From a virus, in the IMG/VR virus record IMGVR_UViG_3300047476_001812, positions 15,925 to 79,924 of that record: a stretch of 64,000 bases of DNA; one strand, given 5' to 3'. The position numbers were made by a program, and so were the translations under genes. The first letter of the stretch is position 1, and every line of letters begins with the position of its first letter. The notes below the pieces were generated by a model. That model had not been told where the DNA came from. It saw only the letters and a list, made by a program, of their open reading frames with translations, and searched no databases. This document shows positions 2,990 through 61,061 of this stretch, one piece after another.

Positions 2990-3043
2990 TTCCCTAACTC
3001 CTTTATTGAGATTTTCACCTTTTTTTTCACAAACATTCAGGCG

Positions 3044-3187
3044 TTAGCCTTGTTCTATTGCTTTCATTAGTCCTGAAATATTGGGATTTTCACCCCATAA
3101 ACAGCCAAACTCTAGGGAGAGCTTTTCGAGTTCGGCTTTGTAATCCGGGGAGACAGAGAGCATAACGCTCTCTGACTTTCTAGACAT
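3044..3187 (-). CDS. 47-aa ribbon-helix-helix-like protein resembling the N-terminus of cyanobacterial WYL regulators
   Basis: Manual translation MSRKSESVMLSVSPDYKAELEKLSLEFGCLWGENPNISGLMKAIEQG; start overlaps the stop of 3187..3492. Confidence 0.65.
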   Translation of the reverse strand: MSRKSESVMLSVSPDYKAELEKLSLEFGCLWGENPNISGLMKAIEQG

Positions 3188-7657: not shown

Positions 7658-7742
7658 TCGTTTATTTTGCTAGTTAAAAGTCCTGTTATAATTTAATTAT
7701 AACAGGACTTATTTTGTTCATCACAGTTAGTAAAGCGTTAGC

Positions 7743-28414: not shown

Positions 28415-28496
28415 AATTTCTAATTCCTTGATTACATCACCATCATTAAGGCGTTAGCCTTACAAATATAATACTTTATAAAACTAAAACTAAACT

Positions 28497-47994: not shown

Positions 47995-48332
47995 AGCAAA
48001 TAGCTAACTTTGTTCCTTTAACTCCACAACAGCAATCTGCAATGGGGTGGGGTTCAGTGCAAGGTAGCTACAGTAGAAGTAAATCTAACAAAGCTAACTG
48101 GGAATCCTACATTCTAGACAAAGAGATTATTAACTCAAGAAATTACGATTCCCGATTTGGTGATGATGTCCAAGAATACGGCATTACTCCTACTGTAGAT
48201 TATGATAGTCTTTTACAAATCATAGAAGAAACAGGAGGATTGGGTAATTTAAGTCGAGCTAGGAGTGACGCTAGAGACAAAATGGATATTATTCACAATC
48301 GTGTCCACAGAAGATAAATAAACAAAAATAAA

Positions 48333-48361
48333 TCCCTTAATCGCAAGGAACGATTAAGGGA
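48333..48361. terminator. stem-loop upstream of the capsid gene
   Basis: TCCCTTAATCG-CAAGGAA-CGATTAAGGGA. Confidence 0.55.
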
Positions 48362-48420
48362 CTAAGCCTGTAAACAACTATATCTAAATCTTATATTTCC
48401 TATGAGGTTATTAAAAACAA

Positions 48421-51400
48421 ATGGCTTTTATTGATGCAGATTTTCCCATTCTTTTAGGACAAGAACTGTATCGCCCTGATGCTAAATACATTATGAAATA
48501 CATTACTCGACCACGGGTAAAACATGATTTCATGAAGCAGCCGGGTGAATAGTCGCCCCGTAGAGTTGTGAAACTCTAATGAAAATTCCGTGAACTGCTG
48601 GAAACCTCTCACTCTTTTTTATCTGTCAAAAGAGAAGGCTTAAAACACTACAACGCAACTGGTAACAGTAATCGTGATAGTTTGAAAAGTTTTAAGTATC
48701 GGGCAATCAGCATCCAAGGGACTCCGGAAGGAGTTCAAGGTTCAACGACTAGGGTACGGAGTCTAGAACAGACGGTAAAACCCCAAGAGCGCGGAACTAC
48801 TGAACCTTGAAAACTAAATACTAAGCAATTAAGTGGAAGCTAAAAGTTTTCTGACTGTATATCTAGCGAGTTTTCTTTGCAAAACAATTGAAGGGTTACA
48901 ACCGTACATCCAGTCAAGACCTTTGATGCCATGAAAAGAAAGCCTGTAAATGCTTTTGTTAGGACGGACTGAACCGGTGGTTATACCATTTCTGTGTAGA
49001 CAATCAGCAACACTTTCCAGTAATTCTTTATTCCCTGAAAGCGTACTGCTGGTGTCATTCTTGGAAATAGTGCCGTCACCATCCCACATCCCCCTAAGCA
49101 GATGACATTCTAATTCAGAATCTATTTTTGGTAGAGAGACAATATTGATTTTAGGTGTTGACAATCCTAAATTTAAAAGGTCTTGGCAGAGAACAGTGGA
49201 GTTTAGATTTAAGTTAACGACATCATGCACTTGACAGCTGTTTTCTTGGGGTTTACTGATTAGCAATTCACCCTCAAAATCCATAGCTTCTGCTATTTCT
49301 CGAAGTATGTAAGAATCAGATTCAGTTAAGCTTATTCTTGCTCTGTGCAACTCTTTGGTAATGTGTCCATCTGTAATCATCAAACCAAGAGCATAGGCTT
49401 TAACCTCTGAATCTATGTTTTGAAAAAACCTTTCATTGAAAAAGATTTTACGGTTGCTGACATTAGGAACACCTTTTACCCCAACGGTTATTCCATGTTT
49501 TTCCGCAAAACTTTTAACACCCAGCTTTCTGCGATAATAACCGGCGTTGTTTTTACCAATTCCAAATTGTTCCCCTATTTGTAAATCGGTAAATTCATTT
49601 GTAAGGTTGTCAAAATCGGCAAAAGAAAGTTCTGTGATTTCCATGCTTAGTATTTGTGATTATTCAGTAGAAGATATAGTCTGTAAGTGCCAATGACAAA
49701 GGCATCACCGCTATCCAGGCGTTAGCCGTAATCTAATTATAAACCTAATTGGATTATATAGCAACCTATAGGACAACATTCAGTTAGACAGATACGCATT
49801 CTGGCAAACCCCTGAAGCTGGCTTCAATAAAGCTGCACGTCAACGGGGTGCTACTCAGGTAATTGGTGTAAACAACTCTCGGAATATCACCAAAGATAAA
49901 GTGATATTAACTCTCGAAGAGTATACTGGACCAGCCGACCCAACCAATCCTGAAAGTCCATCTACTTTCCAGATTCCTATCAAAGACATCATGACTGCCC
50001 AGCGCCAACTATGGCAATACGGGCAACGTGCGTTTCACGATAGTATTGGTAGTTCTAACCTTCTCCAGGACTTCCGTAAATGGGAAGACCGTCTATATAC
50101 CAACGAGTTATTGAAGACAACTTTTATTTACAATCCACGGGGTATTGCCGATGGTGCAACGGTCAACCTAACTCAAGCTGACTTTGGATTTAACGGACAG
50201 CCACCTCAATTTAATGTCAATGACTTAGAGACCGTAGTAGCAGATTTGTTTACCCGTAACTGCCCACAGTTTGAAGATGGTAACTATGTTTGCGCTTGTT
50301 CTGCTATCTTTATCAAACACTTGAGAAGTGATAGCAAGTTCCTAGAGATTACCCGATACTACGCTAGTAACCCCAGCTTAGTTCCGGCATCTGCCATGAC
50401 TAACGGTGCTGCTGGTAGTTTTGCTCCTCCCCAAATAAACTTCAATGCCGCTCCTTGGCAATCTGGTTTAACTGGTGGACAAGCAAACGATGTAATGGGT
50501 CAAGTAATGATGCCTAAAAATAATGTAGTTAGACTCACAAGAATTTCTTGCAAATCTAACTAAGCCTAGTGGGCATCTAAAACGGGATGAATTGCTGGAA
50601 ACCCGCCAAGCCAAGGGCAATCAGCAGCCAAGCCAAGAGAAATCCGTAGAAGTATCTTGGAAGGTTCAACGACTAATGGGTGAACAGGATAAGTAATAAG
50701 CCCAACACGAGCGTCCCGGCATCAGAACCTTGACAACCAAATACTTGCTTCATTTAACTTCCTGGGAATTGCTATTGTGCAGTTGGAGTAAAGCCACTCA
50801 ATTACGGGTTTAGCTTTATCAACGCCGTAACACCCAAAAGTGTAGAGAGGTTTTCCGTTATTGACCGACTCTTTTACTTTTGACGGATAGCCTAGACGAG
50901 ACTCCACAAGTTCTGCAAAACCATAGATTAAATCTTTAGTCGCTGACTGCAAGATAAAACGGTTTTTATCAAAACTTATATGCCCGTCTCCATCAAAAAA
51001 TCCTCTCAAGTAATGTCGGGTTAATTCAGTAGACAAGTTACGAACAAGTAAACGCTCTGATTTTCTCCCAAAACCCAAAGCCACCATTTGTTCAATTAAA
51101 TCTCTGCTGTATATTTCAAGTCTTTCAGTTGGAGATTTGCCTTCCCTGTGGATTTGTTTTATGTAACGGTCACATTCTGAAGCACCAGCAACAGACTTAC
51201 AGATTGTGTGCAAAACAATTGAGTCTGGGTGTTTTAGTTCAATCGTAAACTTTCTATGTTTTATGGTGTTACATATAGAACCATCTGCCGTCAAAAGTCC
51301 TAATGCGTAAGCCTTAATCTCGGAGTCAATACTTTGAAAATAAGTTCTATCAATCTGAAGCTTATCAAAGTATTCACCTTCACCTTGATTAAGAACCCTG

Positions 51401-51984
51401 CCAGATTTACGAGATATGCGCTTGCCAGTCTTTTCACTAAAAGACTTAATGCCAAGCTCTTTACGGGCTATGTGGACAGTAGAAACGGCACAGCCATACT
51501 GCTTGGCAATAGCAATATCCGACAACTCAGAAGTTAAATTATCGAGTGTTTGTTGGTCAAATAAAACGGTTCTTTGGAACTGCATAGGTTTTGATGTGTG
51601 ATATAGTCTGACCTCAATCAATGGAAAAGATTGAGAACTAGAAGGTAAACTACTTCTAGGATAACATAAGTGATGGGTTTTGTTTTTGACGGCGTAAGGT
51701 TCTTTGCCTCTAACAACTTACCTAAAGCACAGGTTACACTTAATTACACCAACTCTGTTAACACTACTAATGCACCTAATGGTAATGCAGTTAGAACTGG
51801 AGAACTGGGAATCTTCTATGGGGCTGAAGCTATTGGGGTTGGATTAGGTGGTAATGGACCAGAAATTCTACTTAATAACAACGACGATTTTCAACGTTTT
51901 GTGATAGCGATTTGGAGATTATATGGAAGCTGGGAATTACTAGACGCTAGATTTGTAACTACTTGCCGTTCTTTCACAAACTAA
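48421..51984 (+). CDS. major capsid protein, spliced: 48421-48546 + 49772-50515 + 51673-51984 (393 aa)
   Basis: Exons join in frame as ...HDFMKQPG|DNIQLDRY... and ...GQVMMP|MGFVFDGVRF...; HK97-fold-like motifs (YVCACS..FIKHLRSD, DGVRFF, DDFQR); follows portal and scaffold. Confidence 0.85.
48547..49771 (+). ncRNA. group I intron 1 in the capsid gene
   Basis: 5' splice after U with P1 GGGU/GCCC; P GAACTGCTGGAAA, Q AATCAGCA, R GTTCAACGACTA, S AAGATATAGTC; P3 TTCCGTG/CGCGGAA; P8 CTACTGAA/TTCAGTAG; terminal G at 49771. Confidence 0.92.
48829..49644 (-). CDS. LAGLIDADG homing endonuclease, antisense in the P8 loop of intron 1
   Basis: KAYALGLMITDGHI and HLLRGMWDGDGTI. Confidence 0.9.
   Translation of the reverse strand: MEITELSFADFDNLTNEFTDLQIGEQFGIGKNNAGYYRRKLGVKSFAEKHGITVGVKGVPNVSNRKIFFNERFFQNIDSEVKAYALGLMITDGHITKELHRARISLTESDSYILREIAEAMDFEGELLISKPQENSCQVHDVVNLNLNSTVLCQDLLNLGLSTPKINIVSLPKIDSELECHLLRGMWDGDGTISKNDTSSTLSGNKELLESVADCLHRNGITTGSVRPNKSIYRLSFHGIKGLDWMYGCNPSIVLQRKLARYTVRKLLAST
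50516..51672 (+). ncRNA. group I intron 2 in the capsid gene
   Basis: P1 AUGCCU/GGGCAU; P AATTGCTGGAAA, Q AATCAGCAG, R GTTCAACGACTA, S TGATATAGTC; P3 CGGGATG/CGTCCCG; terminal G at 51672. Confidence 0.92.
50722..51585 (-). CDS. LAGLIDADG homing endonuclease, antisense in the P8 loop of intron 2
   Basis: KAYALGLLTADGSI and HYLRGFFDGDGHI; ATG 51585 preferred over TTG 51621; related to the intron 1 enzyme. Confidence 0.9.
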   Translation of the reverse strand: MQFQRTVLFDQQTLDNLTSELSDIAIAKQYGCAVSTVHIARKELGIKSFSEKTGKRISRKSGRVLNQGEGEYFDKLQIDRTYFQSIDSEIKAYALGLLTADGSICNTIKHRKFTIELKHPDSIVLHTICKSVAGASECDRYIKQIHREGKSPTERLEIYSRDLIEQMVALGFGRKSERLLVRNLSTELTRHYLRGFFDGDGHISFDKNRFILQSATKDLIYGFAELVESRLGYPSKVKESVNNGKPLYTFGCYGVDKAKPVIEWLYSNCTIAIPRKLNEASIWLSRF

Positions 51985-52119: not shown

Positions 52120-52548
52120 TTATTCCTCAATAATTTCTTCTACAACAGGTGCTATGCCAAGGTTTAAATCTTCTTGTTCTGACTGAATATGAGACCCTGC
52201 CATAACAGTTACTCCCTCTACATGGCCAAAGACTTCCTCAAATGAGCAAATCCTACCTTTAGGAGCATTGGATAATTTAAGAACTTCACTTTCCTTTCTT
52301 CTAACAGGTCTACCTTTTTGACCCTTTTTAACTACTAACAATTCCCTATAACGGGGCTTTTTAGTAGAAGGTAATGTAATTGGCATATACCCTTTACATA
52401 AGCTGTGTTCTTTTTCGGGATTAAAAACTTCGTAACCACCCACAAAATAAGTTTTACCATCTCGGTTCATTAGAAGAATTACAGCTTCCCCAGGTTTCCA
52501 CCTTGGAGGAATGTAGTCTAAATCCAGTTCAGATTTTTTCTTAACCAT
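52120..52548 (-). CDS. hypothetical protein (antisense cassette)
   Basis: Motif C at 52577 and hairpin motif 52651-52672 upstream. Confidence 0.65.
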   Translation of the reverse strand: MVKKKSELDLDYIPPRWKPGEAVILLMNRDGKTYFVGGYEVFNPEKEHSLCKGYMPITLPSTKKPRYRELLVVKKGQKGRPVRRKESEVLKLSNAPKGRICSFEEVFGHVEGVTVMAGSHIQSEQEDLNLGIAPVVEEIIEE

Positions 52549-52696
52549 ATTTTGCAGACGCTTTGCTTACTGCTCCGTTTATTTTGCTAGGAAAACTAAG
52601 TTCCAACTATTAGTTTACCAGAGCAGTTTTGCTGTTATAGCTTTTAGCTTTCACCAACACCGGGGCAATCGCCCCTTTATTTGAGAGGATAGTTGA

Positions 52697-60886: not shown

Positions 60887-61061
60887 GTCAAACCCCTTAA
60901 GTTCTTAACTTAACTTCACCACTCTTGCGGCGTTAGCCGTGCTATTTACTGGGAAATCATGCTGTTCTATTTTCCCCGAATTCCCATGAGCATAACTTCA
61001 CTACTCCTGCGGCGTTAGCCGTTGTAGGAATTATACCACCAAACTAATTATTTAAAGTGGT

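Follow-up and report, generated by a model that had tools for sequence, protein, structure and literature searches.

The closest described system to the one reported here is that of mycobacteriophage LittleE (Cluster J; Pope et al. 2013), whose major capsid gene contains a spliced, probable group I intron (PMC3706429). Splicing of this intron was seen by reverse transcription PCR, and on its bottom strand the intron carries a LAGLIDADG-like open reading frame (ORF) that is transcribed leftwards, against the direction of the capsid gene (PMC3706429); a capsid intron of lactococcal phage Tuc2009 is cited in the same paper (PMC3706429). We analysed a stretch of 64,000 nucleotides (nt; hereafter the window), bases 15925-79924 of a 79.9-kb IMG/VR virus contig from an uncultured freshwater phage, in which the major capsid gene is interrupted twice. 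The evidence makes it very probable that both interruptions are self-splicing, mobile group I introns, each with an antisense LAGLIDADG homing endonuclease gene (HEG) in paired region P8. This kind of element is already known, and its layout has a precedent in LittleE. An earlier note on this DNA, made from the sequence alone, had framed the layout as unusual; it had the structure right, but capsid introns were in print (Tuc2009 and LittleE), that of LittleE with the bottom-strand LAGLIDADG-like ORF (PMC3706429).

As in LittleE, the exons here end in U and the introns in G, and an antisense LAGLIDADG-like ORF lies within a capsid intron; LittleE also has a related ORF-less intron of 265 bp in another structural gene. 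The two systems, which we compare by description, differ in that LittleE has one capsid intron rather than two, and is a temperate siphovirus of an actinobacterial host. No promoter is described for its nuclease, whereas here a phage-specific motif lies ahead of the first nuclease gene (HEG1), within the P9 region of the ribozyme. In addition, unlike in LittleE, there are two HEGs of a double-motif family with an N-terminal helix-turn-helix (HTH), and introns are found at no fewer than eight sites in the capsid family.

Phage introns with homing endonuclease ORFs in peripheral loops include T4 td (I-TevI), nrdB and sunY, and those of SPO1 and Twort (PMC2988022, PMC3984707), with one Twort gene containing three introns (PMC2988022, PMC3984707), as well as the DNA polymerase intron of cyanophage Pf-WMP3 with the HNH enzyme I-PfoP3I (PMC3428280). 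The introns in the window appear to share with these the self-splicing ribozyme type, an ORF looped from the core, early stop codons, location in highly conserved codons and mobility by gene conversion. The ORFs of those introns, however, are in the sense orientation, are of the GIY-YIG or HNH type and lie mostly in DNA-metabolism genes, whereas the ORFs here are antisense, of the LAGLIDADG type, and lie in a virion gene. Antisense HEGs of the His-Cys box family occur in nuclear ribosomal DNA (rDNA) group I introns (PMC9548176, PMC3679873). These resemble the window introns in that the nuclease gene is opposite to its host intron and requires transcription of its own; they differ in being eukaryotic and nucleolar, in interrupting rRNA genes, in the nuclease family, and in expression with spliceosomal introns and polyadenylation. 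Neither capsid genes nor antisense ORFs come up in a review of group I introns in bacteria published in 2014 (PMC3984707). New here are a twice-split capsid gene in a phage of the S-EIVl type with natural splicing evidence, a phage motif embedded in a ribozyme ahead of an antisense nuclease gene, an intron-rich capsid gene family, and a third intron site in relatives.

A capsid gene in three exons

The window contains three plus-strand ORF pieces, between which lie two inserts with one long minus-strand ORF each. The features are as follows (L numbers denote related loci).

48421-48546, plus strand: capsid exon 1, 42 codons; ends in a U that pairs with G in P1; joined to exon 2 in L004-L009
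48547-49771, plus strand: group I intron 1, 1225 nt; long P5 extension; terminal G at 49771
49772-50515, plus strand: capsid exon 2, 248 codons; phrog_1357 match
50516-51672, plus strand: group I intron 2, 1157 nt; terminal G at 51672
51673-51984, plus strand: capsid exon 3, 103 codons plus stop; empty third intron site at 51919|51920
48829-49644, minus strand: HEG1, 271 amino acids (aa), double-motif LAGLIDADG, N-terminal HTH-like region, in the P8 loop
50722-51585, minus strand: HEG2, 287 aa, double-motif LAGLIDADG, in the P8 loop

The joined exons make 1182 nt, or 393 codons plus the stop, and both introns are in phase 0, after codons 42 and 290 (junctions CCGGGT|GACAAC at site 1 and ATGCCT|ATGGGT at site 2). 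The coordinates and lengths of the two inserts given by the earlier note hold, and the seamless capsid ORF that it had predicted is frame-exact. Residues 3-391 of the spliced product align, gap-free at both junctions (residues 42/43 and 290/291), with an uninterrupted ORF of 383 aa in Synechococcus phage S-EIVl (L001:2872-4023; 43% identity, E 2e-101). At site 1, QPG|DNIQLDRY is aligned with QPGQTVQLDRY, and at site 2, VMMP|MGFVFDGVRFF with PVMPTGVQFEGVKFF. From this capsid identity, the phage is probably a cyanophage. In the GenBank record of S-EIVl (KJ410740) the 383-aa capsid ORF is unannotated, and an opposite-strand hypothetical coding sequence and a short C-terminal fragment are listed instead.

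The matches of exons 2 and 3 to phrog_1357 (major head protein) are collinear and cover positions 90-238 and 249-343 of the profile, and exon 2 is 42.6% identical to S-EIVl by tblastn. In L008 (86% nucleotide identity to the window) the capsid gene is uninterrupted, and 15 residues set its 393-aa ORF apart from the spliced product. With an AlphaFold model for the L008 ORF (20 homologues; pLDDT 77, pTM 0.74), Foldseek found 306 matches in the PDB at E<=1e-3. Among the top matches listed nearly all were HK97-fold phage capsids, with a probability of 1.00 (for example, cyanophage P-SCSP1u, 8i4l, E 3.8e-11; Pan3; N4; GP4), and two were encapsulin shells, which likewise have the HK97 fold. A portal gene lies ~2.3 kb upstream of the capsid gene, and the large terminase gene elsewhere in the window. 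The split gene thus encodes an HK97-fold major capsid protein and lies within a head gene module. One distant homologue, P0089 (764 aa), is a prohead protease-scaffold-capsid fusion.

The insertion points can also be read from relatives. Loci L004-L007, whose exons are 98% identical, have neither insert, their sequence being continuous at the very nucleotides predicted; L009, whose exons are likewise 98% identical, is without intron 1, its record ending before site 2. Both introns are present in L003, which comes from another metagenome and is 99.3% identical to the window.

Several freshwater metatranscriptomes hold the region, and ten sequencing runs contain at least half of its sampled words. 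In run X5, a lake metatranscriptome in which all contigs are >=99% identical to the window, a 1011-nt contig joins 48546 to 49772 and 50515 to 51673. These are the two junctions that the earlier note had expected in RNA, here in an unstranded contig. Over the pieces of exons 2 and 3 listed for the joined contig (981 nt), it matches the window with 0 mismatches. Further X5 contigs run across the intron 1 boundaries in unspliced form, and another falls within intron 2; contig depth was 22 for the exons, 22 for the 5' end of intron 1, ~4 for the interior of intron 1 and 12.8 for intron 2. Since the intronless DNA alleles seen each show 26-30 differences from the window among the 1182 exon positions, the joined contig is best read as spliced mRNA of this phage. 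With their precise junctions and joined RNA contigs, both introns are best read as being spliced in nature.

Group I cores and the endonuclease genes

We searched both inserts with the Rfam group I intron model RF00028, a check that the earlier note had proposed. In E-value mode on 3.8 kb, partial matches were found at 48541-48797 in intron 1 (32.8 bits, E 8.6e-6, model positions 5-158) and at 50583-50718 in intron 2 (39.9 bits, E 6.4e-8, model positions 50-157); both lie under the gathering score of 50 bits, and a scan of the whole window at the gathering threshold gave no match. The scores probably fall short of 50 bits because each match ends at P3', with the remaining 3' half of the core beyond a 0.8-kb ORF in P8. 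ORF-less relatives at other sites in the same capsid gene family exceed the gathering score, with 53.4 bits and 60-90 bits. The pairings found in the two introns are given below.

48543-48548 with 48553-48558, plus strand: P1 of intron 1, GGGU|GA with UCGCCC; U48546.G48555 pair
50510-50515 with 50571-50576, plus strand: P1 of intron 2, AUGCCU with GGGCAU; U50515.G50571 pair; extension hairpin at 50526-50562
48747-48751 with 49677-49681, plus strand: P7 of intron 1, GACUA/UAGUC
50671-50675 with 51604-51608, plus strand: P7 of intron 2, GACUA/UAGUC
48797-48804 with 49663-49670, plus strand: P8 of intron 1, CUACUGAA/UUCAGUAG, 8 bp
50720-50729 with 51587-51596, plus strand: P8 of intron 2, CAUCAGAACC/GGUUUUGAUG, 10 bp

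Both introns have the U.G wobble at the 5' splice site and the terminal G, and in both, the 3' side of P8 leads into J8/7-P7' with GAUAUAGUCUG, which agrees with the Rfam consensus, and P9 hairpins come next. As this remainder of the 3' core is located beyond the minus-strand ORFs, the ORFs occupy the P8 loop. A stop codon is met 2 and 15 codons past the 5' splice site in the two introns.

The P3-P6 core (P3, P4, P5 and P6) was aligned for nine introns of this capsid gene family, including both from the window. In this alignment, 97% of cells pair and 18 of the 26 pairs have compensatory changes, a level reached in 0 of 500 shuffles; in slid controls only 31-51% were paired. The intron core is 71-73% identical to cores of Proteus and Flavobacterium phage introns, and Bacillus and Staphylococcus phages were also matched. 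Both inserts are therefore, as the earlier note had it, group I introns, related to each other and of the type usual in phages. Same-family introns exist that have no ORF, so splicing without a resident protein is likely, and both window introns would be expected to self-splice independently of protein. Between P7 and P3' there is a helical insert of 30-45 nt, which, as read from the alignment, resembles P7.1/P7.2 of subgroup IA.

The claim that the two minus-strand ORFs are related double-motif LAGLIDADG genes was borne out. HEG1 matches PF14528 (LAGLIDADG_3) with 45.4 bits and HEG2 with 46.4 bits (cutoff 22.5); both match phrog_4645 (E 5e-33 and 8e-31, respectively), and their products are 32% identical to each other (E 1e-29). 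The peptides FQNIDSEVKAYALGL and FQSIDSEIKAYALGL, quoted beforehand for these genes, are present in the translations. The motifs are LGLMITDG (D92) and LRGMWDGDG (D188/D190) in HEG1, and LGLLTADG and LRGFFDGDG in HEG2; the catalytic acidic positions of both motifs are invariant across 23 homologues. HEG2 is taken to start at the ATG at 51585 (287 aa); a start at the upstream TTG at 51621 (299 aa) is less likely. On the sense strand opposite both HEGs there is no long frame, each frame having 10-21 stops and the longest open stretch being 77 codons.

A profile of the HEG family matches the solved structures I-DmoI and 2dch over both LAGLIDADG motifs (E 1e-7 to 6e-5). The phage proteins resemble these enzymes in being monomeric and double-motif; the similarity is remote, and the phage proteins add an N-terminal HTH-like domain of ~60 residues. 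By these features HEG1 and HEG2 are intact genes for monomeric double-motif LAGLIDADG endonucleases, from which site-specific cleavage would be expected. They may thus provide two new LAGLIDADG enzymes with natural target sites, potentially useful as rare-cutting nucleases. Relatives at ~30% identity are common in phage contigs (at least 405 loci) and also occur in cultured Staphylococcus and Bacillus phages; a metagenome scan with the HEG1 subfamily returned distant relatives only.

Intron mobility and the capsid gene family

We compared the introns and exons of the window with those of its relatives. L003 differs from the window at 14 of 1182 exon positions (1.2%), all synonymous, and at only 6 of 2382 intron positions (0.25%). 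HEG1 has four differences from L003, all synonymous, and for the HEGs together five of the six differences are synonymous. The synonymous exon differences cluster by the insertion sites: there is a C/T difference at +6 of site 1, L003 has four changes at +6 to +15 of site 2, and three synonymous changes lie at -23 to -11 of site 3. Such clusters are as expected for co-conversion or for target-site variation. The intronless sites of the L005 type, which are candidate substrates for the enzymes, show 0-1 nt of difference to the flanks of the intron-bearing alleles over +/-25 nt.

A third group I intron, ORF-less and 265 nt long, is carried by L004-L007 at the equivalent of 51919|51920 (L005:4992-5256; RF00028 53.4 bits, E 3e-12; phase 1 of codon 373). 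In runs X16-X18 the only haplotype present is one that is intronless at sites 1 and 2, so that these runs do not bear on splicing of introns 1 and 2; contigs of X16 and X18 have this L005-type haplotype joined across site 3; all four DNA loci of the haplotype contain intron 3, which suggests that the third intron is also spliced. The three sites of the window's lineage adjoin invariant or near-invariant residues (G42, P290/G292 and I370/W371).

Site 290 is also occupied in L033, whose capsid is only ~42% identical, and the best match of HEG2 is the HEG at this very site in L033 (145 bits, against ~100 for others). P0022 (81% identical) shows the same read-through at site 290. Both presence/absence polymorphism at an identical site in close relatives and the same site filled in a divergent host are thus seen. 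From this polymorphism, the reuse of a site in a distant capsid gene, and introns less diverged than exons, we infer that the introns are mobile by homing. The late capsid pre-mRNA would remove both introns by self-splicing to give the 393-aa capsid protein, and the endonuclease would cleave the insertion site in intronless capsid alleles that co-infecting relatives carry, repair then copying the intron in.

Introns were found repeatedly elsewhere in the capsid family. L033 (1018-4015, minus strand) has two, one following codon 31 and one at the position that corresponds to window site 2; both contain an antisense HEG of the same family. L050 (666-3884, minus strand) has five RF00028 matches of 39-90 bits; four introns interrupt the first 146 capsid codons, the fifth match lies just upstream of the first mapped capsid residues, and there are one antisense and one sense HEG. 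L019, a more distant phrog_1357 gene, has three cores and an antisense HEG. All loci counted, there are at least eight insertion sites in this capsid family; the best 80 capsid-family loci from a narrower alignment search are all uninterrupted S-EIVl-like genes. Outside the capsid gene, L015 and L021 have an antisense HEG within a phrog_13692 gene. An intron core was seen at 19 of 80 HEG loci with an nhmmer profile, which is less sensitive than the covariance model. The capsid genes of the widespread freshwater and marine phages of the S-EIVl type are thus hot spots for group I introns, and automatic annotation fragments such split capsid genes.

A sense arrangement, with the HEG upstream of P3, is found at eight loci (including L017, L018, L031, L053, L069, L078 and L085), where a few to ~150 nt separate the end of the HEG from a group I core that follows on the same strand. 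Several database proteins (including P0037 and P0039) have the N-terminal part of the capsid protein followed by unrelated sequence after about residue 158 or 200. These truncated proteins probably reflect read-through into further introns.

Minus-strand signals and alternative explanations

Being antisense, the HEGs cannot be translated from the capsid transcript, and minus-strand transcription is therefore needed. The minus-strand features of the locus are listed below.

49699-49732, minus strand: promoter-like motif copy (core 49705-49726), P9 region of intron 1
50526-50562, minus strand: P1 extension hairpin of intron 2, terminator-like as read on the minus strand
48331-48363, minus strand: hairpin and T run, just upstream of the capsid start
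3027-3048, 7721-7742, 28437-28458 and 60916-60937, minus strand: motif examples among 16 window sites

The motif can be written GCTAACGC-N10-GTGA or GGCTAACGCC-N8-GTGA, its first part being a small palindrome (GGC-TAAC-GCC). The genome has 23 copies, 16 of them in the window, and each one is on the minus strand; 0.01 would be expected by chance. Most lie 8-155 nt upstream of minus-strand ORFs, including those for the helicase and SSB, and the motif looks like a phage-specific promoter class. The copy in the P9 region of intron 1 is 60 nt upstream of the HEG1 ATG and has a position weight matrix score of 32.3, within the range of the other copies. As HEG1 has a motif that precedes minus-strand genes including those for replication, its nuclease would probably be made on that schedule, apart from the late capsid message. 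A scan for sigma-70-type promoters found 8 against 10.4 expected in shuffles; because there was no excess, a TTGCTA-17-TATAAT site at 49764-49736 was given no weight.

The motif variant nearest to HEG2 is at 52645-52678, upstream of the minus-strand ORF 52120-52548, and both this ORF and the variant are conserved in the intronless relatives L005 and L007. The ORF (142 aa, no family match) lies between the capsid gene and downstream virion genes. On the minus strand, the P1 extension hairpin of intron 2 has a 17-bp stem followed by a T run ~160 nt past the HEG2 stop, and may serve as a minus-strand terminator for HEG2. Read on the minus strand, the hairpin at 48331-48363 has 14 pairs and a T run. 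One of its arms carries three T>C changes in L008, which produce C.A mismatches on plus RNA but G.U pairs on minus RNA, and this suggests a terminator for antisense transcripts. These signals suggest that minus-strand transcription runs through the capsid gene, and the evidence points to a nuclease expressed separately from the capsid message.

Several points weigh against reading the locus as two self-splicing, mobile introns with antisense HEGs. As full-length, ORF-bearing sequences, both introns score under the Rfam gathering threshold, and their P10 pairing is weak, with 3 bp for intron 1 and 2 bp for intron 2. The expression and activity of HEG1 and HEG2 are predictions; a promoter function of the motif is deduced solely from position and strand bias, and no motif copy is found inside the intron of HEG2. 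The RNA evidence consists of unstranded assembled contigs, and an RNA library may contain DNA; an intronless DNA variant with the exact exon haplotype of the window would look the same as a spliced contig. On another reading, the lake sample contained an intronless variant, as DNA or RNA, from which the joined contig came; the introns would be as described, but their splicing in vivo would not follow from it. Intronless alleles do exist in other samples, with X16-X18 holding an intronless haplotype, and contigs from libraries that can hold DNA cannot show transcription. We nevertheless consider this origin unlikely, as the X5 contig has 0 differences in 981 nt, against 26-30 of 1182 in intronless alleles and 14 even in the intron-bearing L003, and the several-fold differences in X5 depth are unlike single-copy DNA, although contig depth is a poor measure. 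That the capsid gene is a pseudogene killed by the insertions, or the contig an assembly chimera, is hardly credible. Only the low Rfam scores speak for it, and against it stand the independent L003 contig of the same structure, the ten runs that hold much of the region, exon differences that are synonymous only, exact junctions, a covarying core and joined RNA; moreover, a search by nhmmer, made with the intron cores and not for a second copy of the capsid gene, found no further intron of this type in the 79.9-kb genome.

Two other explanations concern the role of the HEGs rather than splicing. In line with the block on early capsid expression that the earlier note had suggested, the antisense nuclease transcripts might pair with the capsid pre-mRNA and hold back early capsid synthesis, the inverted orientation being kept for gene control. 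The promoter-like motif before HEG1, the one before ORF 52120-52548 that is conserved in intronless relatives, and the terminator-like hairpin 5' of the capsid start, in which the L008 substitutions pair on minus RNA only, would all suit such a role. However, relatives with 98% identical exons, as well as L008, manage without these introns, and HEG transcripts therefore cannot be required; antisense HEGs are also found in the phrog_13692 gene (L015 and L021) and in LittleE, and this distribution speaks more for a trait of the mobile element than for capsid regulation. We judge this role improbable, about as much as the intronless-variant origin of the contig. A little less probable still is that the HEGs no longer serve mobility and are either decaying passengers or genes for trans-acting maturases. 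LAGLIDADG maturases are known, as in the Thermotoga I-TnaI type (cited in PMC3984707), and an abundant late message may need help in splicing. Yet both ORFs are full length and keep both catalytic acidic residues and every invariant position of the family, nearly all of their differences from L003 are synonymous, the family includes introns without an ORF, and the presence and absence of the introns, together with the reuse of a site by the most similar HEG, point to ongoing homing. Mobile group I introns that splice themselves and carry endonuclease genes for homing therefore remain much the best account of the locus. It offers a natural case in which the most heavily expressed late phage gene would need two ribozyme reactions, with matched intron-plus and intron-minus alleles and RNA from lakes.

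More tentatively, and with doubt prevailing, the minus-strand signals and the introns may be joined in one scheme, in which the backwards orientation is the way this endonuclease family gets expressed. A minus-strand unit would run across the capsid gene from the motif variant at 52645-52678 to the terminator at 48331-48363, both conserved in intronless relatives. The nucleases would ride this unit and be made during replication, with HEG1 having additionally acquired the replication-gene motif in the P9 region of its ribozyme. If so, the nuclease would be made while DNA replicates and homing is possible, and the ribozyme would act later, in the capsid message; with at least eight sites and up to five introns per gene, the capsid gene of S-EIVl-type phages would be an arena of competing mobile introns. 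HEG1 provides a testable case of a selfish nuclease gene that may be wired into the transcription programme of a phage from within a ribozyme.

At 48376/48377, 44 nt 5' of the capsid ATG, RNA-library contigs from two studies (X5 and X16) start or stop, which is a weak hint that the 5' end of the capsid mRNA lies there.

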